The notes below the pieces were generated by a model that saw only the letters and a list, made by a program, of their open reading frames with translations, was not told the origin of the DNA and did no database searches. A DNA stretch of 57,775 bases, from IMG/VR virus record IMGVR_UViG_3300031654_000003, positions 1 through 57,775 of that record; one strand, given 5' to 3'. This document shows positions 8,850 to 52,132 of this stretch, piece after piece (positions within the stretch are counted from its first letter, which is position 1; every line of letters starts with the position of its first letter). The position numbers and the translations under genes were made by a program. Source of the DNA: a virus. Its lineage: Duplodnaviria > Caudoviricetes.

Positions 8850-9336
8850 CTTCAAGAACAATTTTAACAGAACCACCTAAATTCAGGTCTTTAATGTCTC
8901 TCATATCAGTAATATTTTTGGCTGTAAAAATAGTAAAATGCGAATTGTAAACACCAATACAGCCAGCTTGTATAAGAAAATCCTTTTGTATTTCTTTAGC
9001 GCGTGTATATGCCTCTAAGAACTCCTTATGATATGACCTATGGTCTTTATCTTGCCAATTATAAACAGTTGGATATGATACATTTATCCTTTTAGCGAAT
9101 TGAACAAGAGTAGGTAATTTCACGGCTACTCTTTTAAAATCACACCATACTAAATTACCTTCTGAATCATAATGCTCAAGTGGCTTATCTTCATAAGGCT
9201 CTTTGTTAAAGAATTCTATAATTTCATCGCAGTATTCAGACTTATACTTTGTTGGCGCTCCAGTATTATTTGTTATACCATCAGCCTTCTTTTTGTATTT
9301 GTACTTCTTTTTAGACCCTGTCCCTGTGGGTGTCAT
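8839..9336 (-). CDS. terS: Terminase small subunit
   Basis: GAPTKYKSEYC, HTH PTLVQFAKRINVSYPTVYNW, IFTAKN; overlaps terL start. Confidence 0.88.
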   Translation of the reverse strand: MTPTGTGSKKKYKYKKKADGITNNTGAPTKYKSEYCDEIIEFFNKEPYEDKPLEHYDSEGNLVWCDFKRVAVKLPTLVQFAKRINVSYPTVYNWQDKDHRSYHKEFLEAYTRAKEIQKDFLIQAGCIGVYNSHFTIFTAKNITDMRDIKDLNLGGSVKIVLEDEK

Positions 9337-9401
9337 TTGAAATGCTTCTGTAAAGTTTTATGGTTTAAGGCTTTATCTTAATTAAAAGCCGCGTTTAGCC
9401 A

Positions 9402-9722
9402 TTATCTTAACTTCATCATATCGCCAATAATTGAACTTACATCCGAAATAACATCTGAAAATTGTTCATGATTGCCAACAAATCGATAATCACCATTGCC
9501 CGCTCCTGTATCCCTTGTAGTTAAACATCGCACTCCTCGCTCACAACAACTAATTTCTGTGATTTCGTGCATAAAACCAGTTAATATCTCTCGTTGGCTA
9601 TTGTTTTTAGTTCCAACTTTAATAGTCATATTATTAAAGCTAAAATGACTGCCTGATGTACTTTTGGCCTCTTTTACTCTCCAAGGTCTATTATTTATCC
9701 GAACTGTTTTAGGCAATCTCAT
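9402..9722 (-). CDS. Phage metallopeptidase-like protein (HExxE variant)
   Basis: LPKTVRINNRPWRV N-terminus, GFMHEITEI in place of HExxH. Confidence 0.5.
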   Translation of the reverse strand: MRLPKTVRINNRPWRVKEAKSTSGSHFSFNNMTIKVGTKNNSQREILTGFMHEITEISCCERGVRCLTTRDTGAGNGDYRFVGNHEQFSDVISDVSSIIGDMMKLR

Positions 9723-9922
9723 TTGAAAGCCTCTTTAAGCTGCTTGTAATCTTCATTTACGACCTTAGCGAGTCCTTTAAGATAATTTTGCACTGCTGTT
9801 TTTTGCTGTTCAACCCTGCCGCCGTTCTCAAATTCAAGCAAAAGGTCTGCCCGATTCATCTCCGTAAATATCCGACTATGAGCTATATCAACTATCTGAA
9901 AGTCTATTTGTACTGCTGTCAT
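9719..9922 (-). CDS. Hypothetical protein
   Basis: ORF coupled to downstream gene. Confidence 0.5.
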   Translation of the reverse strand: MTAVQIDFQIVDIAHSRIFTEMNRADLLLEFENGGRVEQQKTAVQNYLKGLAKVVNEDYKQLKEAFK

Positions 9923-9982
9923 TGCTATTTTGTTTGTTAAACATTTGTATTTTAAGGACTTAAATTAATTAAGCCACATTCT

Positions 9983-10318
9983 TTACTCTTGTTTTTCCAG
10001 CATACCAGCTCTTGATTCATTTAATTTATAACACTTGCGGGGATTTATTGATTTTTCCCAAGCAACCGTTTCCTCTAAAAGTCCTTGTGATATTAAAAAC
10101 CATACAGTATGTTTGTTTATCACCATTCGACCACCAATTCTAAGATAACTATAAGCATGAGGTAAACTTTCCTTAACTTCCGCAAACTCATAAGCCAGCC
10201 TATTTCTGCTTTTTATTGAGATTTCAAATATCCTGTAATCTGGATATTGCTTCATTATCTCAAAGATATATGATGCTTGTGCCGAAAACTTAATGTTATG
10301 ACCAACAGTTTTAATCAT
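9983..10318 (-). CDS. Hypothetical protein
   Basis: ORF in co-oriented run. Confidence 0.5.
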   Translation of the reverse strand: MIKTVGHNIKFSAQASYIFEIMKQYPDYRIFEISIKSRNRLAYEFAEVKESLPHAYSYLRIGGRMVINKHTVWFLISQGLLEETVAWEKSINPRKCYKLNESRAGMLEKQE

Positions 10319-10524
10319 TGCCCGAAAGCCTCTCTTTTCTTAGAAGCTCTAATCCATCCACAATGCCCCAATAAATACTCATAGGCACAATCTAAACTCT
10401 TCAGCATATCCATATTTGTATTTGGTTTTAGCTCTTTAATTTTACCCTCAATTTCTCCAATTAAGTTCTCTATGATGTCGAGCGTCATTAAATTCGAATC
10501 GCCGTTGTTATCTGGTTCGGGCAT
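10315..10524 (-). CDS. Hypothetical protein
   Basis: ORF in co-oriented run. Confidence 0.5.
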   Translation of the reverse strand: MPEPDNNGDSNLMTLDIIENLIGEIEGKIKELKPNTNMDMLKSLDCAYEYLLGHCGWIRASKKREAFGQ

Positions 10525-10813
10525 TGCTATTTACGAAGTTTAATTTTCTTCGGCCTCGTCCATAATTAGAATATGGGTCTTTAATGAAATGCTTATCTTC
10601 ATTCAAAGCCAAAACTCTATATCCTCCTTTGGGTTCCCAGTCGACTCCAAACATTTCTGGGATTTCCTCAAGCAATTCTACAAATTTTTCCTGCCATTCA
10701 TTTGGCATAGATTGAAGAACTGTTCTCGGCAAAACCAAGTAATTTGCATAACTTAAACTAAAATAGTCATGTATTGGTTCTTTGATTTGTAATATATGTT
10801 GAGTTTCTTTCAT
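10508..10813 (-). CDS. Conserved phage hypothetical protein
   Basis: FSLSYANYLVLPRTVLQSMP.EWQ motif. Confidence 0.65.
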   Translation of the reverse strand: MKETQHILQIKEPIHDYFSLSYANYLVLPRTVLQSMPNEWQEKFVELLEEIPEMFGVDWEPKGGYRVLALNEDKHFIKDPYSNYGRGRRKLNFVNSNARTR

Positions 10814-11103
10814 TATTTAACCCCTGTTCGGGCATTGCTAACGCTTTCTCTGCGGTCCAACTCAAAAAAAATATCTGAAACAGTTCGTAAAGTCATGTTT
10901 CGTGAACCACGAAGAAGTTGCGTAATATGGCTTTTATTGGTGTCTAACATGTTCGCCAATTGCGACTTGCTTATGCCTTTTTGCTCCATCTCTTTCAAAA
11001 TCAACTCTGTTACATCGAGTATAAGTTCTTCCTGGCTCGTTAATTTTGCAAGTTCGCGGTCGTCTTTCAACTCTTTCTCGATTTGTTTCATTAAATCGCT
11101 CAT
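10813..11103 (-). CDS. XRE-family HTH protein (HigA-like antitoxin)
   Basis: GISKSQLANMLDTNKSHITQLLRGSRNMTLRT; GAGGTG SD. Confidence 0.8.
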   Translation of the reverse strand: MSDLMKQIEKELKDDRELAKLTSQEELILDVTELILKEMEQKGISKSQLANMLDTNKSHITQLLRGSRNMTLRTVSDIFFELDRRESVSNARTGVK

Positions 11104-25251: not shown

Positions 25252-25926
25252 ATGGCTATAACAAAAGCACATCAAAGATATAGATTGAAACCAACAACGG
25301 AATTTCCAAAAGGTCGTATAGTACCAGGTGTTACTACTATTATAGATATTCTTAACAAGCCTGCACTTGTACCTTGGGCCAACAGAATCGGCTTGCAGGG
25401 AATTGATGTCAAGCGGTACGTTGACGACAAGGCCGATATAGGAACTCTCGCCCATGCCATGATAATAAACCAGCTACTCGGCAAGAAAACTGATACATCA
25501 GAATATAGCCAAAATCAAATAGATGCTGCCGAGAATGCCTGTCTTAGTTTCTATGAATGGCAGAAAAAACATAATCTTTTAATCACATCGGCAGAGGAAC
25601 CTTTGATAAGCCAGCAATACGGATTTGGTGGACAGTACGATATTTACGGAGTCATAGATAATACAAATGAGTTGTTAGACCTCAAAACAGGCTCTGGAAT
25701 CTGGCTTGACCATTATTACCAAATGGGAGGATATTTACTATTACTCAAGGAATACAATCGACCTGTTGACCAAGTACGAATCTTGAATATCCCACGCACC
25801 GAATCCGAAACATTTCAGGAAGTTACTTTATCGAAACCGGTGATGGAATTGGCGAAAATTATTTTTCTTCAATGTTTAGCAATTTACAATACTACAAAAG
25901 AAATGAACAGATTGGTAAAAAAATAA
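25252..25926 (+). CDS. PD-(D/E)XK exonuclease (phage recombination)
   Basis: PGVTTII, GTLAH, FGGQYD, LLDLKTG, YQ..Y. Confidence 0.85.
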   Translation: MAITKAHQRYRLKPTTEFPKGRIVPGVTTIIDILNKPALVPWANRIGLQGIDVKRYVDDKADIGTLAHAMIINQLLGKKTDTSEYSQNQIDAAENACLSFYEWQKKHNLLITSAEEPLISQQYGFGGQYDIYGVIDNTNELLDLKTGSGIWLDHYYQMGGYLLLLKEYNRPVDQVRILNIPRTESETFQEVTLSKPVMELAKIIFLQCLAIYNTTKEMNRLVKK

Positions 25927-26423
25927 TGATAAAGAAATTTGTACCTACAAAAGAAATACAGCGATTGTACAAAGAAGGATTATCTTTGAATGAAATTGGG
26001 GAACACATAGGTATATCTGGGCAGTCAGTCTGGATGCGATTAACAAAGTCTAAAATGAAGTTGCGAACTATATCCGAAGCCCAAAAAATAGCATACAAAA
26101 AAGGTCGGATGAAAAGTCAGAGGGGAGAAGATAATAATCAATGGAAGGGTGGACGATATCCAGATTCAAGAGGTTATATATATCTGTACACAGGAGTTAG
26201 AAATCGGAAAGTTTTTGAACATAGACTTATCTGGGAGAAACATCACGGCAAAATCCCGGATGGATGGATTATTCATCATTTGAATGGAATAAGAGATGAT
26301 AACAGAATAGAAAATTTGCAAGCTATACCCAGAAAACGCCACAATTCCATGTCAATAGTTGAACCATATCAAGAACGAATAAGAAAACTTGAGCAACAGT
26401 TGGCAAGGCTAATGAAAAGATGA
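25926..26423 (+). CDS. HTH + HNH homing endonuclease
   Basis: N-terminal HTH, NNQWKGGR, EHRLIWE...HHLNGIRDDNRIENL. Confidence 0.9.
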   Translation: MIKKFVPTKEIQRLYKEGLSLNEIGEHIGISGQSVWMRLTKSKMKLRTISEAQKIAYKKGRMKSQRGEDNNQWKGGRYPDSRGYIYLYTGVRNRKVFEHRLIWEKHHGKIPDGWIIHHLNGIRDDNRIENLQAIPRKRHNSMSIVEPYQERIRKLEQQLARLMKR

Positions 26424-32225: not shown

Positions 32226-32477
32226 ATGAGAACTGCAAAAATTATATTTTGGGTACTTGTTATACTTATTGGAATTGAATCCCTTAATTTTATAATTCGT
32301 TATTTTGTTTTTAGTCCAGAATCTGCAATTCAATGGTTCTTAAGTGAATGGAAAATAGGTTATGGAATGGCACTTTGCTTAGGTATACCAACCATTATAA
32401 TCTGCTTTGTTTCATGGCTACTTGATTACCGCAAAAAATGTCATTTCCAAAAAATGATGAATAAAAATAAATCTTAG
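32226..32477 (+). CDS. Two-TM membrane protein, antisense moron
   Basis: AT-rich, own promoter, fills gap between two late genes. Confidence 0.65.
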   Translation: MRTAKIIFWVLVILIGIESLNFIIRYFVFSPESAIQWFLSEWKIGYGMALCLGIPTIIICFVSWLLDYRKKCHFQKMMNKNKS

Positions 32478-35400
32478 TCCTCCCGACCGACAATTTCAAT
32501 TCTCTCTTTCTCCAAGGCTTCCATGAGATCTTTTAATGTATATCCTTCTTTTTTGAGATGATCCATGAACTTTAACTTTTCACTTTTGGGCATTGTTTTC
32601 CAGTAATAATTCAAAGGCACAACAAACTGCATAATCCTGTCGGATGCGCCCTGAGACGTTGTATATCTTTGAGTTTTTATCATGGTTTCAACTGCCGATT
32701 TGAAATCTCCCTTTTGAAGCAGTTCATCAATCTCCTGGTCGGTTTTTTCTTTTTCATAACCGAGTTCCGCTCTGAAGTCCCACATCATCTGCGTAAACTT
32801 ACCACCTGGTGCACCACGTCTTATCCATGTTCCGGTAAAAGGCATAACCCATTCGGGCCAGGTTGGAACATATCCAGGCCGACCTGCCCATACGCTTGAA
32901 GGTGTAATACCCTTAATAAAGTATGAGGCTCTTTCCTTTATGGCTTCTAATGGCGGTGTTCCTTTGCGGCTTATCTGTTTATGCTGCCAGGCACTATAGT
33001 TAAATAAAACCTCAAAGGAATGTTTGAGCATGGGTTCAAGTTTATTGTAAAGAGTTTTGCCCGGCTCAGTAGTCCAGCCGATATAATCACGAATGTAGCG
33101 AAAGAATGGAGCTACGACATATATCCTTTGCCCCTTATTGTTATCCAGTCCCGTATCAACATCGTACCAATGCCCCTTTTCGTTCTGGAATGTAAGATGT
33201 AATGGTTCGGGTTTGCCTTTGATTGTCTTTCGCTTTTTGAGTGCGTTAGTTGCAGTCAGAAATCCTAATTGTGCGAGATTTGAAAAAAAGAGTAGTCCGA
33301 ATATGCCCTTTAGAAGATGCTTTGTAAAGTCTTTACCTATCCGCTTTTGCTCCTCTCTTGGCAGGGATTTCATACCCAAACCCTTTTTGCCATAAGTGGC
33401 AGCCTTAACGACCATATCAATATTTGAAAAAGTCCAGTTCCGGGCAAAAAAGACAATAGAGCCAGCTTCACGCTGGAATTTTGTAAACCATGTATGAGGC
33501 AAGGTTCCCAAGAGTGTATTTATATAATGAGCAGCAACTTTATCAACTTGGTCTTGAATCCATTTCGGCTGCTCTTTTGCTATTCTCTTCGTAAGAAATT
33601 CAAATAGACCCAACTGGGCATTTCTTACCGTCCCTTGCCATAAATGTTCATCCGACCATTCTTCTAACTTATTGAGTGGCTTAAATATTTCTTTCCAAGT
33701 AGCAGATTCACCCATTGCTTTACGCAATTCCTGAGCTATGCCATAACCAGATTGCAATTGAAGCCCTGCACTAACCGCCCTTTCGGCCAATTCATCTTTG
33801 CTCTTATAGAGAACCTTTCCCCTTTTTTGCACAGAGATTAATTTGTATGGATTAAAATTGACCTCATCAAAAACATCAGACCAGATATTCCAACTATGGA
33901 TAAGCGGGTTATACATAATCAATCGCTTTATCCGACCACGAATCGACATATATCCCCTTGTTAGCTGACCTCGACTTACCCAGGGGGAGAAAGCATCATT
34001 TAGAATTTTAGCAACTTCAGGGTCAGCTTTCGCTGGCATACTTATGAGCATTGGTTTCTCTGCCGCTTCACCAACATAAAGAAATCTTTGAAGGCCGGGA
34101 ACATTAACCCACTGATATTCATTTTCCCATACTTTAAGTTTCTCTGGCTTGCGGGGTCTGCCCATAATTAGAGGCATACCATCTTCTCGCTCCATATTCT
34201 TAAGAAGCTCTATCAAATTACGATTCGCTATTGTTTTATAAAGCTGATACTTATAGACGGCATTCTTTAGGATAGGGTCTGTAATCGGGTGAAGTCCTGC
34301 TGATTCTGCCTCATCCATAGTCTTGAAAACTCTTTGTTTACCAAAGCGGAACCGTTTACCCAGCTTGCCGCCTTGTGGGTAAAGTGTCCGCATAAGACGT
34401 GTCTGGCTATCCTTATATAAATGCGGAGTATAATCTTCTACCCAGGATTGTAAGATTCCTTCCTTCTTTGCGAGGTTCTTCATCTCCTCATAGTCGGCCT
34501 TGAGGGCATTTCCGGCCTCTTTTACTTGGTCTGGAAGCTGGTCGAATTGTTCCTGATACTTTGCAGGATTATCCAAATATCTATCGACAATCTCTAACTG
34601 CTTCGATGTTGCAGGGACTTTCTTTAATGTCATTTTCGCCCAGTCTGCATACATCCCTGCCTTATTTGTTTCTGCTCTCCATTTTTCAATCGCTCCAAAC
34701 ACATCGGTAATAATGTCTCGCTCTGGCTCGTTGAGTTTAGCAAAGGCCGTTTTCATACGACTTGATAGTTCTTGAAATTCAGCAAGTGAGGGAATACGTG
34801 CAAATCCAGGTCTTACAACAGCAGCCTTTTTGATTTCCTTGATTTGCTCATTAACCTCATTTTCGACAGATGCAGGGACTTCATAAGCATTTGCTTGTGA
34901 TGAAGGCAAGGTTTCTGTAGGTACTTTTACGATTTCTTTTTCCCTTGCTCCTTCTGCTGGTTTTTCCTTAGCTTGCGGCATAGCTGCCAGAGCTTCTTGT
35001 GATTTTTTGTATTCTCCTAAAACATTTATGTTGCTTTCAACCTTGCCTTGTGGTATATTGACAATATGGCTAATTGCTTTTGTGCTAATTGTGGCAGGCT
35101 TGTTCATCGCCGCCCTTCTGTTTTCAAGGGCAATGGACGCACTTTCTGCTCCAACAGGTGTCGTGGTTTGTTCATAAGGCAAAGAAAGAATATCAAGTGT
35201 ACCACTTGTGGCAAGATTATCCAAAGAATTCCTTATAGACTTAAACGTTCTAAGTTTCAATTTTGTAGTCGCACTTGCTATATCCTTCATAAGAGAGTCG
35301 GCAGTATCGATTCTAAGGGATATGCTGCCATCTGCATTAACAAGAAAAGGTTCTTTATTCATAGACTTATCATGGAGGCTTATCTTGGTAGGAAACTTAA

Positions 35401-36994
35401 TTTTAATGAGATTGTTCACCACATCAACGGTGTCAGGACTGATAATAGAATTTCTAATCTCCGGTTGATGAAGAGAGGCGAGCATACTACGCATCATAGA
35501 GGTTTGAGTTGGGATATCGAAATCGCTAAGTCTCTTATTTCCAGTGGACAAACTCTTGCCAAAGTTGCTAATAGATTTAATATCACCAGCCAAGCGATTC
35601 AGAGTGCTTTTCGTGTAAGGGGCATTAATATTAGGAGTTTGAGAAATTAATGCTTCTTTTTCCTCATCGGCAGTCGGGGCGGGCTTTTCAACAAGGGGCT
35701 TTCCTTCGACAACGCCTTTTTCTTGTTCCGTTATAATTTCAGGTTGTGGCGGAAAGCCCCGTTTCGCCTCTGCTATTTGCTCAAGGCCAGTTACAGGCTT
35801 TGATAATTCTTCTAATGCTCCCCGTCTTGGCACATAAACCCGTCTGCCTTGTTCTGTGATAACCTTGCCCCTTTCAAGAGGCGGCCTTGGTGCTTCTGGG
35901 GCTATCTTGGTAGGCTCAAGAGGAGTTCGCAAGCCTACGCCTCGCTGCACAACGGGAACAGGCATTGTGGGGGCTGTTTTAAATGTTGGAGAAACTCTGG
36001 CTAATGGGTATTTGCCGAATCCTTTAACTTTAACCTGCTCTGCGGGTATTGGTGCTGGCTTGGCCTCTGCCGCCGTGCCGAATCCGGCATATTTTCGCAT
36101 TACTCTTTCCCATTCAGCAGGATTGCCCTGCTTTTTAAGATTTAAGGCTTTGTTTATCTCTGCTCTTGCCTGAGTTCGTGCTCTTACTGCATGTTCAGAG
36201 GCCGAGACACTCTGGTCGAAGGTTTCAACGCCCCGTAAGAAACTAACAAGCTTTTGTAATCCTACCTCACCCGCTCCGAACAAAACCCCAACGCCGCCTT
36301 CAAAATGTACGCCCTTCCAGTTTACGGGCTTACCTGTAGAAATCTTCTTTGCGAACTCTTCGGTTGCACCACGCGCACCAAAAGTCAAACCACCGCCAAG
36401 AATTGCCTTTAATGCCTGCCGTGCCGGTATCTTTGAAACACCCACACCTATTAACTTGCCTACTTGTCGCAGGCTTGTAGCGAATTTAACCATCTCGGCA
36501 GCACTCATCTCTCGCGGTGTAGGTTCGAAACCAGTTATTTTGTTTACAGCCTCACTCAAAGTATCAGATTCGGAAATCTTGCTTGTTACTACATCGGGAA
36601 GGTAAAGACCTAAACCGCTTACGGCAGAGGAAAGATAATGAAGTCCCAATCTGCCAAGTCTTTTGCCGCCTTCATAGCCTGGCATTTTTTCAAGAGTGCC
36701 GGATAATTGGAATTTTATCTTTTCTTTCAGGTCAGGACTCCATGCTTTAATCTCTTGCTCACCCTCTGTCGGCCATGTTCCCGTATAGCCTGTTCCACCG
36801 AAAGATACCCTTCTTCCCTGAGTTAAATCAGAGAATCGGCCTTGTGGCTTTTCTTCAGGAGCTTGAACCTGCTTAGCCAAATCAGGGTCTTCAAGCCAGT
36901 TCTGGGCGATTTTGGCAATACCGGCAAAGTCCTGTTCAGGCTGTAGCGTAGGTGTTACAGCTTTGGTTTTGGTAAGGTCGCTGAATCGTCCCAT
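32474..36994 (-). CDS. Large internal virion/DNA ejection protein (1506 aa)
   Basis: Size, helical composition, last of three genes after the nozzle in podovirus order. Confidence 0.75.
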   Translation of the reverse strand: MGRFSDLTKTKAVTPTLQPEQDFAGIAKIAQNWLEDPDLAKQVQAPEEKPQGRFSDLTQGRRVSFGGTGYTGTWPTEGEQEIKAWSPDLKEKIKFQLSGTLEKMPGYEGGKRLGRLGLHYLSSAVSGLGLYLPDVVTSKISESDTLSEAVNKITGFEPTPREMSAAEMVKFATSLRQVGKLIGVGVSKIPARQALKAILGGGLTFGARGATEEFAKKISTGKPVNWKGVHFEGGVGVLFGAGEVGLQKLVSFLRGVETFDQSVSASEHAVRARTQARAEINKALNLKKQGNPAEWERVMRKYAGFGTAAEAKPAPIPAEQVKVKGFGKYPLARVSPTFKTAPTMPVPVVQRGVGLRTPLEPTKIAPEAPRPPLERGKVITEQGRRVYVPRRGALEELSKPVTGLEQIAEAKRGFPPQPEIITEQEKGVVEGKPLVEKPAPTADEEKEALISQTPNINAPYTKSTLNRLAGDIKSISNFGKSLSTGNKRLSDFDIPTQTSMMRSMLASLHQPEIRNSIISPDTVDVVNNLIKIKFPTKISLHDKSMNKEPFLVNADGSISLRIDTADSLMKDIASATTKLKLRTFKSIRNSLDNLATSGTLDILSLPYEQTTTPVGAESASIALENRRAAMNKPATISTKAISHIVNIPQGKVESNINVLGEYKKSQEALAAMPQAKEKPAEGAREKEIVKVPTETLPSSQANAYEVPASVENEVNEQIKEIKKAAVVRPGFARIPSLAEFQELSSRMKTAFAKLNEPERDIITDVFGAIEKWRAETNKAGMYADWAKMTLKKVPATSKQLEIVDRYLDNPAKYQEQFDQLPDQVKEAGNALKADYEEMKNLAKKEGILQSWVEDYTPHLYKDSQTRLMRTLYPQGGKLGKRFRFGKQRVFKTMDEAESAGLHPITDPILKNAVYKYQLYKTIANRNLIELLKNMEREDGMPLIMGRPRKPEKLKVWENEYQWVNVPGLQRFLYVGEAAEKPMLISMPAKADPEVAKILNDAFSPWVSRGQLTRGYMSIRGRIKRLIMYNPLIHSWNIWSDVFDEVNFNPYKLISVQKRGKVLYKSKDELAERAVSAGLQLQSGYGIAQELRKAMGESATWKEIFKPLNKLEEWSDEHLWQGTVRNAQLGLFEFLTKRIAKEQPKWIQDQVDKVAAHYINTLLGTLPHTWFTKFQREAGSIVFFARNWTFSNIDMVVKAATYGKKGLGMKSLPREEQKRIGKDFTKHLLKGIFGLLFFSNLAQLGFLTATNALKKRKTIKGKPEPLHLTFQNEKGHWYDVDTGLDNNKGQRIYVVAPFFRYIRDYIGWTTEPGKTLYNKLEPMLKHSFEVLFNYSAWQHKQISRKGTPPLEAIKERASYFIKGITPSSVWAGRPGYVPTWPEWVMPFTGTWIRRGAPGGKFTQMMWDFRAELGYEKEKTDQEIDELLQKGDFKSAVETMIKTQRYTTSQGASDRIMQFVVPLNYYWKTMPKSEKLKFMDHLKKEGYTLKDLMEALEKERIEIVGRED
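35031..35059 (+). promoter_or_regulatory. Promoter for nested HNH gene
   Basis: TTGCTT-N17-TATATT with extended -10 TGG; ATG 6 nt downstream. Confidence 0.7.
35066..35650 (+). CDS. Zn-finger + HNH + HTH endonuclease nested antisense in ejection gene
   Basis: Two CxxC..FCSxxC repeats, KGY, HRLIME..LGR, VHHINGVRTDNRISNL, C-terminal HTH. Confidence 0.9.
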   Translation: MANCFCANCGRLVHRRPSVFKGNGRTFCSNRCRGLFIRQRKNIKCTTCGKIIQRIPYRLKRSKFQFCSRTCYILHKRVGSIDSKGYAAICINKKRFFIHRLIMEAYLGRKLNFNEIVHHINGVRTDNRISNLRLMKRGEHTTHHRGLSWDIEIAKSLISSGQTLAKVANRFNITSQAIQSAFRVRGINIRSLRN

Positions 36995-36997
36995 TAT

Positions 36998-37987
36998 TTA
37001 TTCACCTTCTTGCAATCTGCGAAGGATTTCGTTTATGTTGTTCGGGTTAAGGGTTAGAGCTTGCTTTATTTCTTGTTTGTCAATATCCTCAAGGCTTTCC
37101 CAGTACAAACCCAGCTGGCTTGCTTTGGCCTTCTGCTCCGGTGTAAATTTAGGCCATATATCCTGTATCTCTTTGGGTACTTCATAAGCCTTGCTCGGTG
37201 GTTCAAACATTTTCTGGGCTACACTTTCAATGCCGGTCGGCCTTTCTTTTCCTTTTATTCTCTCTCCCAGTCCCGGCCTATCTCTTAGCGATGTTCCTGT
37301 TGGCGCAGTAGTTGTAGGTACTGGTGGTTTTTGCCCGAACATCTCAGGATGTTGCTGATAAAACATTGCAGTAAACGGGTCCATAGATACAGGAATATTC
37401 GTTTCTACTGGCTCTCCCGTATATGGATAATCCATTCGCAACATATTTGTGTCACCCTTAAAGAATTTAGGCGTAGGCATTCTCGGCGTTATATCTAAGT
37501 CGCCATAGCCCATTCGCTGCATAATTGAACGAAAAGCCGGAGATTGCAGAACTTTCGGGTCGATTTTGCTAAAGTCAATCAATTCTCCAAGTTTCTGTTT
37601 TGCCCTTTGTGGTTCTTTTTCCGTCAATTGTTGTAATAGAGCCTGCTCAAGTTCAGAGCCACCACCTCTGGCCGGTGCAAACGGATTTAGCCTGTCAACA
37701 ATACCCCCTAAGCCGGTCGGTCTTTTTGCAGTCATTTCCGAAATGGCACGTAATGCCTCTTGAAGATTAGCTTGCATATCACCTTCTCTGGCAAGTATCG
37801 GGGATACCTGTTGAAACTGCTGCTGAGTTTGCCGCTGCTGCTTGCCTTGACCATAGATTTTTCCTAACATATTTCCAATGGCTTGAGCGAGAAGGAGTTT
37901 GTTTTGTCCTGCATTCTCGCTTAAATCCTGTATTCCGCCACCACCACTAATCGGTAATCTCGGCGTGTAAAAAGGTACGTTTATCAT
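36998..37987 (-). CDS. Internal virion/ejection protein
   Basis: G/Q/P-rich; middle of three-gene ejection block. Confidence 0.65.
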   Translation of the reverse strand: MINVPFYTPRLPISGGGGIQDLSENAGQNKLLLAQAIGNMLGKIYGQGKQQRQTQQQFQQVSPILAREGDMQANLQEALRAISEMTAKRPTGLGGIVDRLNPFAPARGGGSELEQALLQQLTEKEPQRAKQKLGELIDFSKIDPKVLQSPAFRSIMQRMGYGDLDITPRMPTPKFFKGDTNMLRMDYPYTGEPVETNIPVSMDPFTAMFYQQHPEMFGQKPPVPTTTAPTGTSLRDRPGLGERIKGKERPTGIESVAQKMFEPPSKAYEVPKEIQDIWPKFTPEQKAKASQLGLYWESLEDIDKQEIKQALTLNPNNINEILRRLQEGE

Positions 37988-39196: not shown

Positions 39197-41149
39197 CTAA
39201 AGCCTTTCACCAGCTTCCTGCCAGTAGAGAATCGCCTTTTCAAATTCTACGTGCTCACTGGATTCGGCGTTTCTAAAGCGGAGCCTGAACTTGCGGCAGT
39301 TTATTTTGAACTTAGTCACTTGCGGAATCTCAAGACTTGTACTGTCATCAAGTGTTGTTAAAAGTGTCCAGCTTTTACCCTTATCGGTAGAGTAATAAAT
39401 TTGAAGGCTTGGCCCCGTATAGTATGTATCAAGACGAACTATCCGTTGGCGTGCCTGCCATTTCGTAAAAACAAAGTCTTTGGTATCGAAATAAGCATCT
39501 ATGGCATTGTCATCATCATTATTCAATAAGGCCGAATACTCATATATATAACCATCTTCATCACCAAAAAGAGTTAAAGGTGTCTGGCTTAGAATGGTTC
39601 GGTCGCCTATCCGCCAGTTCAAATTTCTTATCTTATCGGTCAAGTCCCCTATTGTTGTCGCAGTTTCGAGGAAGTAATAGCCGAATGCGGTCATGGTATT
39701 ATGCAGGCTGTGCTTGAACCACTTGGTAATATCGTAGTTAAAAGACCAGACCAAAGGGGTCGTGAAAAGCCAGTATTCCTTTTGCTCCTCGATGATAAGA
39801 CTGAAACACTTGTTTATATCAGAAGGAATTAGCTTTGAGAAAAGCTCTTTTCTTATCGCTTTTGATATGGATACCGAGTTAATTCCACTAAAAACATAGA
39901 CATCATCCCATCCGAGATAGCCAAGCTCATTTCCTATAATTGAAATCGTTCTGCCTGCGGCACATCCCATCCCCTTCGCCTCACCGTCAAATTCAAATAT
40001 CTCGCTATCACTTGTGGGATAGCCGATAAGAACCGACCTTTCCTTGAATATTATTAAATGGTCATCATCGAGCAGTACCGCACCGGCAACCCAGTCAGAG
40101 CCGGTTAAATCTTTATAGCTTGCATTTCCAGTTGTCCAGTTTTCAGGGTCGGCAGTGTCCGACCATCTGTCTCGCTGATGGTAAGAATCTGAACCTTCTG
40201 TTGTTCTTAATAAGTGCAAATAGGTCTTGAACTGAATTAAATGTTTTGCTAAAGGGGGAGAGCCGCCCAAGTCCTCGAAAGTTGCACCATCATACTTCTT
40301 TATACTATCTATGCCGTTTGAGCATACCCACCACAAATCCGATTCGGTTTTCTTTCGGATATAATCATAGTAAAAATAATCGGCAGCCGTTCCCGTAAAA
40401 CATTTGAAAACCCTTATGTCGTCAATTATTATGTCACATTCCCCGAAGTCCTCGGCGGCCTGCAGTCCTATAGAAGCGATAGAATCCAAGTCGGTCGTGA
40501 GTCCCGACCCATCACGCATATCGAGCAAAACCTCAGTCCATGTATCGGCGGTCAGTGCGGGAAGGTCTATTTCACGCAGCGGTGAATCACAGGCGGCGGT
40601 ATTGTCTATGAGGAATTGCAGTTGGCCGGCTGTAAGGGCAATAGATGATTTTATCCAGAACCGTATGTGGTTATAGCTGCTTATATCCCCTATGGCACTA
40701 TCATGGTATGCCAAAATACCAGTTGTGAAATCAGCATTCGGCGAAATTTTTACCGAATATGTCCCCTCTTTTATATCCGTATCTTCAAGCTCTGAGGTAA
40801 CATTAGCAGAAGCAGTCCAGTTGATTTCGCAGTCATCAATGGATGTATGTTCCGTTAAATAGTCCCAATTCTTCGTTGATGTATTCCATTTATAAATATC
40901 TCTTATTGTCATAGTTAAGAGATACTGGCCGCCAGAGTATTTATAGAACTGGTCAATGCCCATCACTGCACCGGAAAGAGGCAGATTGCCCCCCATCTTT
41001 TTGTAGCCATAGCGTTTTTTGAGCAGACCATCTTCGTAAAAGAAGTTCTGGCAGTCCGTCATCTCAATAGAGGAAATCAGGTCGGATTGCTCATCGTAAC
41101 GGATGCCCCCACGAGGGGCGAGAATCGGTTCTGTCTGTATTGGTTGCAT
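39197..41149 (-). CDS. Tail nozzle/stabilisation protein (P22 gp10/T7 gp12-like)
   Basis: GG...N...DGLLKKRYG, RWSD..DPENW, LIIFKERS, GC, beta-propeller character. Confidence 0.8.
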   Translation of the reverse strand: MQPIQTEPILAPRGGIRYDEQSDLISSIEMTDCQNFFYEDGLLKKRYGYKKMGGNLPLSGAVMGIDQFYKYSGGQYLLTMTIRDIYKWNTSTKNWDYLTEHTSIDDCEINWTASANVTSELEDTDIKEGTYSVKISPNADFTTGILAYHDSAIGDISSYNHIRFWIKSSIALTAGQLQFLIDNTAACDSPLREIDLPALTADTWTEVLLDMRDGSGLTTDLDSIASIGLQAAEDFGECDIIIDDIRVFKCFTGTAADYFYYDYIRKKTESDLWWVCSNGIDSIKKYDGATFEDLGGSPPLAKHLIQFKTYLHLLRTTEGSDSYHQRDRWSDTADPENWTTGNASYKDLTGSDWVAGAVLLDDDHLIIFKERSVLIGYPTSDSEIFEFDGEAKGMGCAAGRTISIIGNELGYLGWDDVYVFSGINSVSISKAIRKELFSKLIPSDINKCFSLIIEEQKEYWLFTTPLVWSFNYDITKWFKHSLHNTMTAFGYYFLETATTIGDLTDKIRNLNWRIGDRTILSQTPLTLFGDEDGYIYEYSALLNNDDDNAIDAYFDTKDFVFTKWQARQRIVRLDTYYTGPSLQIYYSTDKGKSWTLLTTLDDSTSLEIPQVTKFKINCRKFRLRFRNAESSEHVEFEKAILYWQEAGERL

Positions 41150-42210
41150 TAAGGTATTTCCATAACCAATAATTGTGCAGGACAAATAGTTCCATAGGAC
41201 GTTAAGGCGCTTCCGGCATTTTCTCGCGCCTGTAATGTGACTGTATAAGTACCCGCATTCAGACCTGCCTGTTTTGTCTTTATTGGAATTGTGTTGTTAG
41301 ATGTACTAATACTAAGGTCGGCAAACTCTTTTATGTCATGTTCAGTGCCATCATCATAGCAGACTTTTATATCACCTGATTGTGCTCCTCCACCCGCAGC
41401 TAAACCAATTACGGCTTCTACAATCAATGTTCCACCAACCGTTGTAATATCCAAAGTGCAAATAACTTGATAAGATGTAGTGAGAACGACATTTGTTGTA
41501 GATGGCGTAGCTTCTACTACCTGTGATTTTGCCTTTATCTGGTCATCGGTATATTTCTTTATTGATTGTTGTGTGGCAAGTTGTGTGGCCGAATCCGAGA
41601 CCATATCATCTTCATCAAGAACAGCAACGGAATTGGCAACATCAATATCTCCGGCAGAGGCAAACTCAATGGCAACCTTGCTCGGCGCATCGCTATCATC
41701 ACCATCATTAAGGACAATGCGAAAGCGGCCTTTCTGGTCGTCAGAAGTCCCATCGTGTGCAAACTCGATATAACCAAGTGTTGTGACCTCTCCACCGGAC
41801 TGCTCACCTTTGGCTACTATTCTTGACTCTCTGCCGCCATCACCATCTTCCTCCGTTGTGTTGTGTAGGATAGGATATGGGGTTGTACTCTTTCCTAATA
41901 GTAATTGACCGCCTTCCGTTAGCTGTCTTTCGTCACCATCTTCATCTTTCCAGAACAACTCACACTTGCTGTCATCAGAGGCTTTCGCGGCCAAAGCTAT
42001 CTTGTTTTCGGCAGGTGTATCTATAGAAGCTTGTTCCCTGAAAAGGCCAATGTTAATACCAACATCCGTCTCGCCGGTGTTAAAGCCCTCGAACATACCC
42101 TCAAGACGCTCGGCAACATCGACTCGCACACCGACGATAAAGTTGTCTATCTCATAACCGTAATTGTCATTTGTCGGTGTTGCTTCGCTCCAGTCCCGTG
42201 TATATGCCAT
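41149..42210 (-). CDS. Tail fibre/spike-like protein
   Basis: W.EATP N-terminus, DEDDMVSDSATQLATQQSIKKY repeat-type motif, beta-rich C-terminal domain. Confidence 0.7.
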   Translation of the reverse strand: MAYTRDWSEATPTNDNYGYEIDNFIVGVRVDVAERLEGMFEGFNTGETDVGINIGLFREQASIDTPAENKIALAAKASDDSKCELFWKDEDGDERQLTEGGQLLLGKSTTPYPILHNTTEEDGDGGRESRIVAKGEQSGGEVTTLGYIEFAHDGTSDDQKGRFRIVLNDGDDSDAPSKVAIEFASAGDIDVANSVAVLDEDDMVSDSATQLATQQSIKKYTDDQIKAKSQVVEATPSTTNVVLTTSYQVICTLDITTVGGTLIVEAVIGLAAGGGAQSGDIKVCYDDGTEHDIKEFADLSISTSNNTIPIKTKQAGLNAGTYTVTLQARENAGSALTSYGTICPAQLLVMEIP

Positions 42211-42312: not shown

Positions 42313-42783
42313 TTATACTATATTCAAATGAGCAAAATCTCCAAAACGTTCTTTGGCTTTTTCATTATAAGTAAGCGCAGCATCTATTTCATTTTCGTAA
42401 TATCCGAGATGTGTTTTTTGTATATAAGCCTCCCATTTTTTACTATTTTTACTCCAACTAACACCTTTATATTGTGAGCTTTTATTTGGCATTTTTATTC
42501 GATTATAATGATTTTGTGCAGTTACACAAATACGCAAGTTTGAACGGCGATTATCAAGACCATTATGATTTATGTGGTCTATTTGAAAGCCTACTGGGAT
42601 TTCAAATAATATTTCACGGTGCATAGTTATAGTTGTATATTTTCCATTTTTATGAATACATCTCATGGCATAGAAAGTATTACGAAATTTTGCTGCACAC
42701 CATTTATATTGATTAATTCTTTCATAATCTTCGTTATCGACTATTGCGAATTTTCCTTGAGTTAGAGGAATTAACTTTGACAT
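42313..42783 (-). CDS. HNH-AP2 homing endonuclease
   Basis: IPLTQGKFAIVD, MHREI, DHINHNGLDNRRSNLR, SQYKGV, HLGYY...AA..YN. Confidence 0.93.
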   Translation of the reverse strand: MSKLIPLTQGKFAIVDNEDYERINQYKWCAAKFRNTFYAMRCIHKNGKYTTITMHREILFEIPVGFQIDHINHNGLDNRRSNLRICVTAQNHYNRIKMPNKSSQYKGVSWSKNSKKWEAYIQKTHLGYYENEIDAALTYNEKAKERFGDFAHLNIV

Positions 42784-42915: not shown

Positions 42916-43650
42916 TTATGGTGCTAAACTCTGTCCGGGTGCGGGCTGTAATCCTTCCTCAATTCCACCCTTCTTTTTTTCATCTTCCACGATCATCTCG
43001 AAAAGTCTCTCTTTGGCTTTATCGTTAAAATATCCTGCAAGTGCATCCTTCGACCACTCAAAACCAAGTGCAGTCGCCTTCCATTCAACTATCTCTGGAT
43101 AATTTTCCGTCAGGTAATTCGTGTCGTCATCGTCAGATAACGTAATAAGATACCCGTAATACTCGAAGTTTATCGTAAAAGCCTCATCGTTATTCGCACT
43201 ATGGTCTGGAAGCGGATAGAACCAAATATCACCCTGGTCTATGCAGTAATGTGATGGAATACCCTTGTCGGCAATATCAACAAATTTTGTTCTCTGCTCT
43301 ATCTCCGACTTGTAAAGTTTCGTTAGCTTCTTTCGACAGTCGTTGTAGTCTATAAGCTCGCAAATCCCATCGCTTTTTTCCGCTTTGAATTTCATAATGC
43401 TACTGGCTGCATCCTCTGTCGGCAGGTCGTATCTTCTCTGCTCATTAACAGTAGAAGCCTCCACCTCCGTCTCAAGAAAGCTAAAATTATGGTTTAAGGT
43501 CTTACCTGTGGGCAGAAGCAGAATACCGTTGCAAACCCAGCGTTGCGCACTATTTATCCATTCGTTCAGTTTTGCCGGAGTAAGATTTACAAAGTCATCG
43601 CCTTCAAGAGCATCATTTACATTTGTTCGTATTTCAGAGAAAGTTGACAT
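42916..43650 (-). CDS. Head-tail adaptor protein
   Basis: TFSEIRTNV...WINSAQR...YDLP...G.P..Y...IWFYPLPD. Confidence 0.8.
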   Translation of the reverse strand: MSTFSEIRTNVNDALEGDDFVNLTPAKLNEWINSAQRWVCNGILLLPTGKTLNHNFSFLETEVEASTVNEQRRYDLPTEDAASSIMKFKAEKSDGICELIDYNDCRKKLTKLYKSEIEQRTKFVDIADKGIPSHYCIDQGDIWFYPLPDHSANNDEAFTINFEYYGYLITLSDDDDTNYLTENYPEIVEWKATALGFEWSKDALAGYFNDKAKERLFEMIVEDEKKKGGIEEGLQPAPGQSLAP

Positions 43651-45099: not shown

Positions 45100-46827
45100 T
45101 TATGTAGTTACCTTAGACCAAGTTACTGAAGAATCGCCTGCCGGCAGCGACCATATCGCAGTTGATTCATCTTCACTTTCCGGCCTTTGCCAACTGGCCG
45201 AATCGGCTCGTCTCCGTATAATATCACTTACCGAAACGGAATCGAAAACGCATATCAAAAGGCCATAAAAAGGCTTTTCAGCAGATACATTGTCACCCAG
45301 CCCAACAACATCGTAAGCGATAACACGAATCGGACCGATAAATACTCTGGACAAAGCATCGACAGCCTGAATGCTATCGTAAACATTGACGTTAATGTTT
45401 AACCTGAAAGTCACTACTGAAACAGCATCCGCCGTTTCAATGCTCTCGTATAGACTTATCAGAAGTGGTGTGACATGACACAGAATACTATCGGAAACCG
45501 TCAAATCTTCGGAAACGCTCAACAATAACAAATTCAATTTCACATCTTCGGAATCAGAGAGAGATATGCTTTCGTCAATACTGATTTTCAGCAGACTTAG
45601 AAATTGGCTTATAGATTCAGTTACAGATACACTGTCATTCACATTCAGTTTAAGCAGATTAAGAAATTGATTGTTGTATTCGGAGACCGAAATATCTTCA
45701 TACAAACTGACCTTTAGCTGTGCTAATCTGGCGGTTAAGTCTTCAGACAAGGATAATTCATCATAGACATCTGCGAAAAGGTAATTGAGAATGATATTAA
45801 CATAATCTGCCAGAGATATATCGTCCGATACGCCGGCTTTCAACTGTGCCAGTCTGTTAGTTATGTCCTCAGTTAAAGATACCGAGTCATACAATTCTAA
45901 TTTTAGCGGATTAAGAAAACTATTGATGTAATCAGCAAGGCTGGATGTATCGTAAACCGATAGTTTTAAGGGATTGCTTTTGATTGTCTCATCTTCAGTC
46001 AGTGAAATGCCGTCGTAAACATTTACCGAAAGCGGGCCGGTCACAACAGAAGTCGCCGCTGTCCATAATTCAATCGGCTCTTGATCAAACATGCAGAATG
46101 GATCTCGGTAAAGTAGAGCAATTTCAGAGGAAGACAAGGCGCGATTGTAAATTGATACATGACTAATCAGTCCTTTCCATATATTATCTACAACCACGCC
46201 TCTTGAGTTACCATTACCAAAGTGAAGTTCTTCGCCGACATCCAAATTCCCAGCGGCAGTATGACCGCTCGCACTTGCTACCAAGACTCCATCCAAGTAA
46301 AAATACATACCTGCTGGATTAAGTACGACTATAATTTGATGCCATAAATTATCGGCTTCGATAGTAGTGTAAGATACAAGGTCAAAACCAGCACCCCCAT
46401 CTCCGCGTATTCTAAAATATAACTTATTTGCTGTACCAGTTATAGCCCCTGTATTGTCATCAAGACCAATTTGTAACACAGGGTCATAAGTTCCTGCCTC
46501 ATAAGTCATGCTGACAAGTTCCTGATAATCTGTCGATGTTGCAATATTTTTAGCATAAGCAACAATAGTCAATCCTCGACCAGCTGTAATGCTGCCAAAG
46601 TTATAAATGAATTTAGAATCCACGTAATCTGTCAGGTTTGCGATTTGAATTGCTGAACCATATTTTCCAGATGACCAAGAGCCAACTAAATCACCAGATG
46701 GATAACGGCCGCTCGCATCAAAGACCTTACCACCGCTTCCTTCATTAAAAAGCCAGCATCCGACAAGACCACGCGAGAGCGGATGTCCTCTATTTACTCG
46801 AATAAATTTTTGAGGTTTCAGTATCAT
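45100..46827 (-). CDS. Fibre protein: LamG/ConA-like head + 21-aa repeats
   Basis: LVGCWLFNEGSG, WHQI, FYLDG, IYNRALS..EI..LY; same repeat. Confidence 0.8.
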   Translation of the reverse strand: MILKPQKFIRVNRGHPLSRGLVGCWLFNEGSGGKVFDASGRYPSGDLVGSWSSGKYGSAIQIANLTDYVDSKFIYNFGSITAGRGLTIVAYAKNIATSTDYQELVSMTYEAGTYDPVLQIGLDDNTGAITGTANKLYFRIRGDGGAGFDLVSYTTIEADNLWHQIIVVLNPAGMYFYLDGVLVASASGHTAAGNLDVGEELHFGNGNSRGVVVDNIWKGLISHVSIYNRALSSSEIALLYRDPFCMFDQEPIELWTAATSVVTGPLSVNVYDGISLTEDETIKSNPLKLSVYDTSSLADYINSFLNPLKLELYDSVSLTEDITNRLAQLKAGVSDDISLADYVNIILNYLFADVYDELSLSEDLTARLAQLKVSLYEDISVSEYNNQFLNLLKLNVNDSVSVTESISQFLSLLKISIDESISLSDSEDVKLNLLLLSVSEDLTVSDSILCHVTPLLISLYESIETADAVSVVTFRLNINVNVYDSIQAVDALSRVFIGPIRVIAYDVVGLGDNVSAEKPFYGLLICVFDSVSVSDIIRRRADSASWQRPESEDESTAIWSLPAGDSSVTWSKVTT

Positions 46828-51190: not shown

Positions 51191-52132
51191 TTAGAATAAC
51201 TCCTCTATCTGCGGGTAAATTAAACTTGTATCGTATTTGCTTACGAAATTAAGATAATCAAAAGAATCGTAATCGCCCTCTAATATTTCGAGGGCTTCAT
51301 CTATCGTGTTAAAGATAAGGTTTTCAGGGAAAAGGTCTTTAGCTCCAGGCCAATTATGTATTAAAGGCTTTATGCCGACCGCCATGCTTTCAATAATTGC
51401 ATTTGGGTGACCTTCGACAATGCTCGTATTCAAACTGAAGCTCTTATCTGCCAGAAAGCCCTGAACATCATCATAATTCTTCATCGGGGCGATTCGGTTC
51501 TCTGCTCTCATAGCTTTTGTAATGCTGTCGAAATAAAATCCGGTTCGCGGATCGCCCTTCGTGCCAGCCGGATAAATCGAGTAGTCATAAGGCATATAGA
51601 AAGCGAACTGAGCCAAAAGCTGAACGCCTTTTTTGTAGCAAAGACTGTTTACCCATGCTATTTTCTTGTTCGGACTTCTCTTTACAAACTTCCATTCATC
51701 GAGGTCGATAGCATTGGGTATAAAATGAGTGGGCGTCTTAAAGCCGTCCTTGATACCTGCGGCGGAGTTAAGCGAATCTGCATTTGCAAGAAAACACTTT
51801 CTTATAGAATCATTGACGAAAATCAGATGGTCAATATTAGGCCAGTTTATCTGCCAGGGATACGGAGTGTCCCAGAGTTCATAGCTTCGCAGGTATGCAA
51901 TGTACTTTTTGCCTTTTTTCTTTTTCTGCTCGCTGCAATGCTTGAGAAAGCCATCCGACCACATGAAAAAGACAATATCCGCCCAATCAATTACATCTTC
52001 AGTATTTTTACCATTTACTTGTCTTGGGTATTTATAGACCTTGACATCGTATTTCTGGCCGAAGTATGTCTTGAAATACCTCAGCCAACAGTTCTCCCAA
52101 GGGCTGCAAAGTAAGATTTTTGTTTTAGGCAT
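51191..52132 (-). CDS. GT-B (GT4-like) glycosyltransferase
   Basis: IPNAID, KKG, TSIVEGHPNAIIESMAVG. Confidence 0.88.
   Translation of the reverse strand: MPKTKILLCSPWENCWLRYFKTYFGQKYDVKVYKYPRQVNGKNTEDVIDWADIVFFMWSDGFLKHCSEQKKKKGKKYIAYLRSYELWDTPYPWQINWPNIDHLIFVNDSIRKCFLANADSLNSAAGIKDGFKTPTHFIPNAIDLDEWKFVKRSPNKKIAWVNSLCYKKGVQLLAQFAFYMPYDYSIYPAGTKGDPRTGFYFDSITKAMRAENRIAPMKNYDDVQGFLADKSFSLNTSIVEGHPNAIIESMAVGIKPLIHNWPGAKDLFPENLIFNTIDEALEILEGDYDSFDYLNFVSKYDTSLIYPQIEELF

Follow-up and report, generated by a model that had tools for sequence, protein, structure and literature searches.

An HNH endonuclease gene antisense to a giant virion gene

The window analysed here comprises 57,775 nucleotides (nt), positions 1-57,775, of the Caudoviricetes record IMGVR_UViG_3300031654_000003 from IMG/VR, and our subject is an HNH_3 endonuclease gene on its plus strand (35066-35650, 194 amino acids (aa) plus stop codon), which lies wholly within a minus-strand open reading frame (ORF) of 1506 aa (32474-36994). 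The latter, referred to below as the host gene, is situated in the virion structural module of the phage and has no stop codon across the endonuclease region, whereas the endonuclease gene starts with an ATG at 35066 within an enclosing plus-strand ORF of 35048-35650. The endonuclease product contains a pair of zinc fingers of the form CxxC...CxxxC (aa about 4-32 and 45-71), an HNH core at aa 97-144 reading …EIVHHINGVRTDNRISNLRLMKRGEHTTHH…, and then a helical C-terminal region resembling a helix-turn-helix (HTH; aa about 150-190). Pfam assigned HNH_3 (PF13392) to aa 97-140 with an E-value of 1.8e-13, above the cut-off, and zf-FCS to aa 43-71 (2.2e-6), while 15 of the 17 PHROG matches are described, all of them as HNH endonuclease families, the other two carrying no description. 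The AlphaFold2 model of the HNH frame, based on 8 homologues, was a confident one and had a mean predicted local distance difference test score (pLDDT) of 79.2, with 86-93 in the core. Foldseek gave I-HmuI (1u3e) as its top match in the PDB with a probability of 0.99, but this match is weak (E-value 9.3e-3, template modelling (TM) scores 0.28/0.31), and it was followed by LuxR/NarL-type HTH domains and a TRASH/MYM zinc finger. The HNH residues H118, H119, N127, N131, H140 and H144 are invariant across 8 copies nested in other genes in the same way. On this evidence the window contains a real zinc-finger/HNH_3/HTH endonuclease gene, in agreement with an initial annotation made from the DNA alone. 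The same phage has two more HNH_3 genes, both free-standing (25872-26423, plus strand; 42313-42783, minus strand), and in one of them the HNH is preceded by HTH motifs, while the other has an AP2-like domain and lies within the virion gene block.

The distance from position 36994 to 35068 is 1926 nt (3 x 642), and hence the two frames are aligned codon-to-codon in antisense, with one host codon opposite each HNH codon; the host frame is translated as ...KAISHIVNIPQGKVESN... In this register only the codons TTA, CTA and TCA in the HNH gene would be read as host stops, and as all three have synonyms, an HNH gene avoiding them keeps the host frame open and its own protein unchanged. The HNH gene has 13 leucine and 14 serine codons, and none is TTA, CTA or TCA. 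In 44 genes of the window these three make up 448 of 11,960 codons (3.75%), equal to 28% of the leucine and 18% of the serine codons, and the probability of finding none in 194 codons is 6e-4 based on the per-codon frequency, 8e-4 based on synonymous usage and 9e-4 based on the usage of the host ORF itself. The two free-standing HNH_3 genes have 7 such codons in 183 and 6 in 156, compared to 0 in 194 for the nested gene. A run of at least 194 codons free of TTA, CTA and TCA was found in one of the 44 window genes (51191-52132, run of 249 codons), and therefore a single nested case is not conclusive. This minus-strand gene, which is weakly glycosyltransferase-like, provides a natural control for antisense-open runs; the plus-strand ORF codon-aligned within it (51407-52114, 235 aa) belongs to no family and is probably a chance shadow ORF. 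The GC content of the HNH block is 0.37-0.39, versus 0.42-0.51 in its flanks, and the host-frame sequence flanking the block is rich in proline, glutamate and lysine (P/E/K). The unbroken host ORF, the codon-to-codon register, the exact counts of leucine and serine codons and the P/E/K-rich surroundings had all been noted initially, and all were borne out by the ORF listing, the offset, the codon counts and the host translation, respectively.

Upstream of the HNH gene there is a putative promoter, TTGCTT-N17-TATATT (35031-35059, plus strand), in which TTGCTT occupies 35031-35036 and TATATT, preceded by TGG, occupies 35054-35059; both hexamers are identical in the second copy of the cassette described below (contig L001). 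The ATG is located 6 nt past the second hexamer, and thus the mRNA could be leaderless. No motif resembling a Shine-Dalgarno sequence was found upstream of this ATG, yet such a motif is present for only 14 of 46 window genes. By eye only, GGAGG-like motifs were seen upstream of the HNH starts in two other nested loci (L005 and L009). With regard to splicing elements, a search of 33500-37500 on both strands with Rfam gave no matches at E≤1 and no group I or group II intron core, and there were no intein or Hint hits from Pfam in the host protein (P0001, E≤0.01) or in five other hosts. The nested cassette is without intron or intein signature, as the initial annotation had already reported.

Mobility of the cassette and the family of the host gene

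The cassette is mobile, as a second, near-identical copy is present in an unrelated gene. Contig L001 carries it at 9053-9752 (blastn, 97.7% identity over 700 bp), which delimits the cassette to 34986-35685 in the window, with 34986-35652 as a nearly identical core and a more diverged end (35653-35685). The L001 host, P0011, is a protein of 2267 aa unrelated to the window host protein except for the block, and here too the HNH gene is antisense and in register inside an open frame, that of all 2267 aa. Of the 16 differences between the two cassettes, 8 fall in 35653-35681, just past the HNH stop codon, and 6 within the HNH ORF, where four are at third positions, all silent in the HNH protein and all changing a host residue, and the remaining two give I73T and I120V. 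In the host frame, the shared cassette extends past the HNH gene by only about 12 residues on one side and about 26 on the other. The flanks of the two cassettes are unrelated save for two short host-frame motifs, GKVI.EQGRR.YVP.RGALE.L.KP (35795-35869 in the window, 8953-9027 in L001) and EGKPLVEK (35685-35728 and 10187-10227), the positions of which relative to the cassette are permuted; EKPAP-like sequence is found at both cassette edges. These short motifs may be recombination or target motifs.

We also aligned contigs of four salt marsh metagenome runs other than the source (X2-X5) to positions 34000-36700. The cassette flanks were covered at 99% identity or more in all four, and the depth over the cassette (35001-35672) was 0 in X4, near 0 in X5 and 1-3 in X2 and X3, versus 5-11 on the flanks in these two runs. 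A 977-nt contig from X5 joins position 35001 to 35672 via 889 other nt, replacing 35002-35671; the difference of 889 and 670 is 219 (3 x 73), which means that the host frame is kept in this alternative allele. The same divergent sequence begins at 34999/35001 in X3, X4 and X5. Alongside window flanks, X2 and X3 contain pieces of the cassette showing 0-1 differences to the window copy, and the two ends of the cassette (34940-35001 and 35652-35712) turn up in several contexts in the other samples. Exact scans of viral contigs for the alternative allele, with a 40-nt window flank and a 30-nt loose end, gave no hits. The insertion site is polymorphic among near-identical phages.

Nine true homologues of the host protein, of 1000-1660 aa, were identified, all sharing a C-terminal module of about 815 aa, which in the window host protein covers aa about 690-1506 (32474-34927, minus strand), and the antisense-HNH block is absent from all nine. 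The cassette is positioned about 20 aa upstream of the start of this module, in the P/E/K-rich sequence, whereas the N-terminal part (aa 1-436; 35686-36994, minus strand) is hypervariable and unalignable among the homologues. Homologue P0005 is 46% identical to the window host protein from about aa 690 on, and its alignment over the block region is a low-identity extension; no empty-site boundary is derivable from the homologues. Two distant family members with weak matches to the C-terminal module (P0095 and P0060) have an antisense-HNH block upstream of the module, which suggests that the equivalent position has been used repeatedly. The window host protein itself has no Pfam domain, and among GenBank phages neither the 1506-aa protein (tblastn) nor 10 kb of the DNA (megablast) had a match, but its closest homologue, P0002, carries ART-PolyVal (PF18760) in precomputed annotation. 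Neighbouring genes at 39197-41185, 41149-42210, 42916-43650 and 45100-46827 match virion structural or tail PHROGs.

Recurrence in giant phage proteins and selection on the endonuclease strand

Called relatives of the window HNH protein are limited to 6, with at most 50% identity, among 5.8 billion clusters, and scanning viral contigs with this single protein as query gave no confirmed relative. As gene callers retain the giant ORF and leave the nested gene uncalled, nested endonucleases do not appear in protein catalogues. When the host-frame peptide (aa 437-675) was used as query in an exhaustive HMMER search, 79 proteins were identified at E≤1e-3, including 15 at E≤1e-10; 62 of the 79 are at least 1000 aa and 40 at least 2000 aa in length, with a maximum of 4927 aa, and the match is internal in nearly all of them. 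The viral-contig loci obtained with this antisense peptide all (7/7) have a full zinc-finger/HNH/HTH ORF antisense in open frames of 1404-3757 aa, three of which extend past the end of the contig. A second scan of the viral contigs used the sense HNH alignment, thereby avoiding ascertainment bias via the host frame: among the best 80 of 575 relatives, in-register nesting was found at 15 loci, which have open frames of 640-4241 aa and include all 12 top-scoring ones, while the loci in this set that are not nested mostly have 1-17 TTA, CTA or TCA codons. Together this gives 22 distinct contigs with antisense in-register nesting, a count that includes the window and L001, and in which two contigs found twice are counted once. 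The chance of having no TTA, CTA or TCA ranges from 2e-4 to 0.53 per nested locus, depending on GC content, and most of the weight of the stop-avoidance argument is supplied by the GC-poor loci (the window, L001, L014, L016 and L019).

The host frame is without stops in every nested case verified at the DNA level, and the HNH ORF is intact in 21 of these 22 copies. The exception is locus L025 (about 9900-10440), where the HNH gene has a premature stop and has lost the N-terminal zinc finger, and the 2299-aa host frame, which bears LPD38, has stayed open, as would be expected if the endonuclease is decaying while the host gene is still under selection. A maximum-likelihood tree of 82 HNH proteins (21 nested, 61 free), made with a quick method, requires 3 changes for the nested state, compared to a mean of 18.7 changes when the nested labels were shuffled, with none of 500 shuffles as low as 3. 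All nested HNH proteins are in one half of the tree, with long branches between them. Left out of the tree were L025 and L057, in which the HNH frame is broken, L040, L054 and L067 as near-duplicates of L039, L052 and L065, and L007 and L009, which are on the same contigs as L017 and L016. The clustering indicates that the nested habit is inherited and old, recurring in a deep HNH lineage, with one origin or more.

An alignment of up to 77 antisense stretches from giant proteins was then used to compare the two strands. The host residues opposite HNH histidines are only V or M (V59/M18, V60/M17, V46/M31), those opposite asparagines only V or I (V63/I14, V44/I33, I48/V29), and those opposite an aspartate I or V (I39/V38), while opposite cysteines they are almost only A or T (A65/T5 of 74; A34/T32 of 69). 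These host columns are the reverse complements of two-codon amino acids, and consequently their conservation comes from the HNH strand and not from a domain of the host protein: purifying selection acts on the HNH frame. Opposite HNH residue 122, a glycine in the window, the host has proline in 69 of 77 rows, which requires an NGG codon in the HNH gene, e.g. GGG; host-frame selection may be acting as well in this column, or it may reflect codon bias. The AlphaFold2 model of the host-frame peptide, based on 21 sequences, was poor, with a mean pLDDT of 55.9 and a predicted TM score of 0.21, and the antisense-HNH block matches no Pfam domain, P0012 having no Pfam hit below E 0.06.

With regard to the nature of the hosts, domains of the polyvalent type were found in 6 of the 7 nested-host ORFs scanned and in P0019 (ART-PolyVal, LPD1/3/5/22/38/39, InPase, RadC, PBECR1 and SLT), and in the polyvalent hosts scanned the antisense-HNH block lies between the domains. 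These signature domains, and the location among virion genes, resemble the polyvalent proteins described by Iyer et al. (2017, PMC5512222). The initial annotation had spoken of an essential gene, which overstates the case. From their sequences, the hosts of nested HNH genes are probably phage polyvalent proteins, probably injected accessory ones, with the insert in the hypervariable part.

Alternative explanations, precedents and significance

We consider it probable that the window contains a mobile homing-endonuclease cassette, inserted in reverse orientation and in codon register within the gene for a giant polyvalent protein, with the host being translated through it. In this explanation a cassette of about 670-700 bp, with a zinc-finger/HNH_3/HTH gene and its own putative start signals, would have been inserted reversed in codon register, and the polyvalent host protein (a virion protein, and probably an injected one) would be translated straight through, gaining about 230 aa of poorly structured filler in a variable, linker-rich part, while the endonuclease would be made from the opposite strand. 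The endonuclease presumably cuts or nicks cassette-less alleles in co-infecting relatives, and recombinational repair would then copy the cassette into the cut allele. The initial annotation had likewise proposed a splicing-free insertion as tolerated filler, and this core idea is well supported by the lack of the cassette in 9/9 homologues, the L001 copy, the polymorphic site, the 22 contigs and the 79 proteins, but the arrangement is not unique.

Several observations weigh against this explanation. A truly empty allele was not seen in X2-X5, only the 889-nt replacement, and no contig from these four runs was shown to bridge the window-type cassette to a flank. The window, L001 and the alternative allele have only about 14-15 bp in common at each edge, and the presence of near-identical copies in unrelated genes is at odds with site-specific homing of the classical kind, except where a short motif serves as the target. 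Many of the nested loci are GC-rich (0.56-0.68), for which the lack of TTA, CTA and TCA codons is not improbable by itself (P 0.1-0.5), and the third-position excess of 4/6 between the window and L001 is not significant by itself either (P about 0.1 by a binomial estimate). The tree fails to recover the nested HNH proteins as a single clade (3 changes, weak support, quick method). The hexamers, 17-nt spacer and nearby ATG of the initially annotated HNH promoter are present, but the promoter was not called by a sigma-70 consensus scan, which omits it because the first hexamer matches at 3 of 6 positions. We infer from sequence that the HNH gene would be transcribed and translated and that its product would cleave a target; homing as the mode of spread, and a functional read-through host protein, are likewise what the sequences suggest.

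The block could instead be a domesticated or inert relic, now a linker module that has spread by module shuffling, with the HNH protein not made or not active. Polyvalent proteins are modular and have hypervariable parts, P0001 and P0011 have the short permuted flank motifs in common, and one copy (L025) has a broken HNH gene, all of which would suit a relic. We nevertheless think this unlikely, as the catalytic His, Asn and Cys codons are kept across copies of 27-43% identity, the V/M-only, V/I-only and A/T-only host columns are unexplained by any constraint on the host protein, 4 of the 6 ORF differences between near-identical copies are silent in HNH, and 21 of the 22 DNA-verified copies have an intact HNH ORF. 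A window contig that is chimeric at the cassette, joined by the assembler via short shared ends, would be consistent with the polymorphic site, with the occurrence of the cassette ends in several contexts in other samples and with the lack of contigs from X2-X5 bridging window-type junctions; however, near-exact cassette fragments (0-1 differences) occur together with window flanks in X2 and X3, both cassette junctions are in frame, and the arrangement is independently present in 21 other contigs, which makes such a chimera very unlikely.

It is highly improbable that the block is removed, whether as an intron that escaped recognition, as an intein holding an antisense endonuclease gene or through translational bypass. 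While antisense endonuclease genes inside inteins have been reported (bioRxiv 10.1101/2025.01.02.630785) and novel ribozymes would escape Rfam, the Rfam search was empty, there was no Hint or intein hit from Pfam, the approximately 12 and 26 residues outside the HNH gene are too few for splicing domains, and an intron needs no open host frame, yet all DNA-verified cases have this frame open, the decayed copy among them. Least credible is that the HNH gene lies by coincidence between two separate minus-strand genes with the 1506-aa ORF an artefact. In favour of it, about 20 aa separate the cassette from the conserved C-terminal module, some homologues measure as little as 1000 aa, and an antisense-open run of this length arose by chance in 1 of 44 window genes; against it, the chance of the stop avoidance is below 1e-3, the same arrangement is found in 22 distinct contigs, deep in ORFs of up to 4241 aa and between recognised domains, and homologues of 1204-1660 aa fuse long N-terminal parts to the same C-terminal module.

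The initial annotation had implied that the arrangement lacks precedent, but two known systems precede it. The first is the ShiLan domain, a hidden HNH gene inserted free of host stops and without splicing in mycobacteriophage DNA methylases, with the HNH gene on the same strand (Arsenault, Gosselin and Gogarten 2025, PMC11855218). As described there, it resembles our cassette in having an HNH protein of about 195 aa with zinc fingers (194 aa in the window), no host stops and no intron or intein, a disjunct distribution and a host-frame reading predicted to be poorly structured, but it differs in that the ShiLan HNH gene uses another frame of the same strand, whereas the window HNH gene lies antisense and exactly codon-aligned to its host and hence needs its own transcript; also, the ShiLan hosts are methylases and the hosts here giant polyvalent virion proteins. 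In the available text of PMC11855218 the words antisense, reverse, complement and opposite never occur. ShiLan-type loci were also found among the HNH relatives (L057, about 10001-10940; L068, about 10001-10930), where a DNA methylase gene with a DPPY... motif (open frames of 753 and 636 aa) contains a zinc-finger HNH gene on the same strand but in a different frame, the HNH frame of L057 having an early stop.

The second system consists of antisense LAGLIDADG or VSR-like endonuclease genes inside inteins, for which one preprint (bioRxiv 10.1101/2025.01.02.630785) cites Gorbalenya 1998 and Gogarten 2002. As with our cassette, these genes are antisense within a continuous host frame, but there the segment is spliced out of the protein by the intein around it, whereas here there are no splicing domains and the endonuclease is HNH_3. 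An out-of-frame endonuclease is reported for a cyanobacterial dnaX intein (bioRxiv 10.64898/2026.09.14.751524). Compared with I-HmuI-type phage HNH homing endonucleases (1u3e), the window protein likewise has an HNH core followed by an HTH-type DNA-binding part, but its gene is without an intron and the structural match is the weak one given above (E-value 9.3e-3, TM 0.28/0.31). In the accessible text of the polyvalent protein survey (PMC5512222) the terms homing, antisense and intein are absent and HNH comes up once, in an unrelated connection, and full-text literature searches, as far as the texts they covered reach, found no description of antisense HNH genes read through in polyvalent proteins. 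We rate antisense codon-aligned read-through as a new form of splice-free endonuclease nesting, carried by an HNH_3 lineage in polyvalent proteins.

Introns and inteins are the textbook routes by which a homing endonuclease gene can reside harmlessly in coding sequence. Antisense codon-aligned read-through is a further, splice-free route beside ShiLan, and a common one here, which relies on a simple feature of the genetic code, in that purely synonymous choices of the guest suffice in this register to keep stops out of the host frame. The antisense shadows show up in at least 79 proteins as conserved blocks without known function, where they could be mistaken for protein domains, and the arrangement points to places in giant virion proteins where about 230 additional residues are tolerated. 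Selection on overlapping genes could also be studied in the nested HNH genes, which constitute a natural dual-coding system. As a tentative extension, which we see as a possibility and still doubtful, an old HNH lineage may have become specialised by its codon choice for antisense in-register life in injected polyvalent proteins, swapping modules by cutting and recombining at short linker motifs. If true, this module-swapping lineage would explain the hypervariable architecture of the polyvalent proteins, and the filler itself may be a spacer module.

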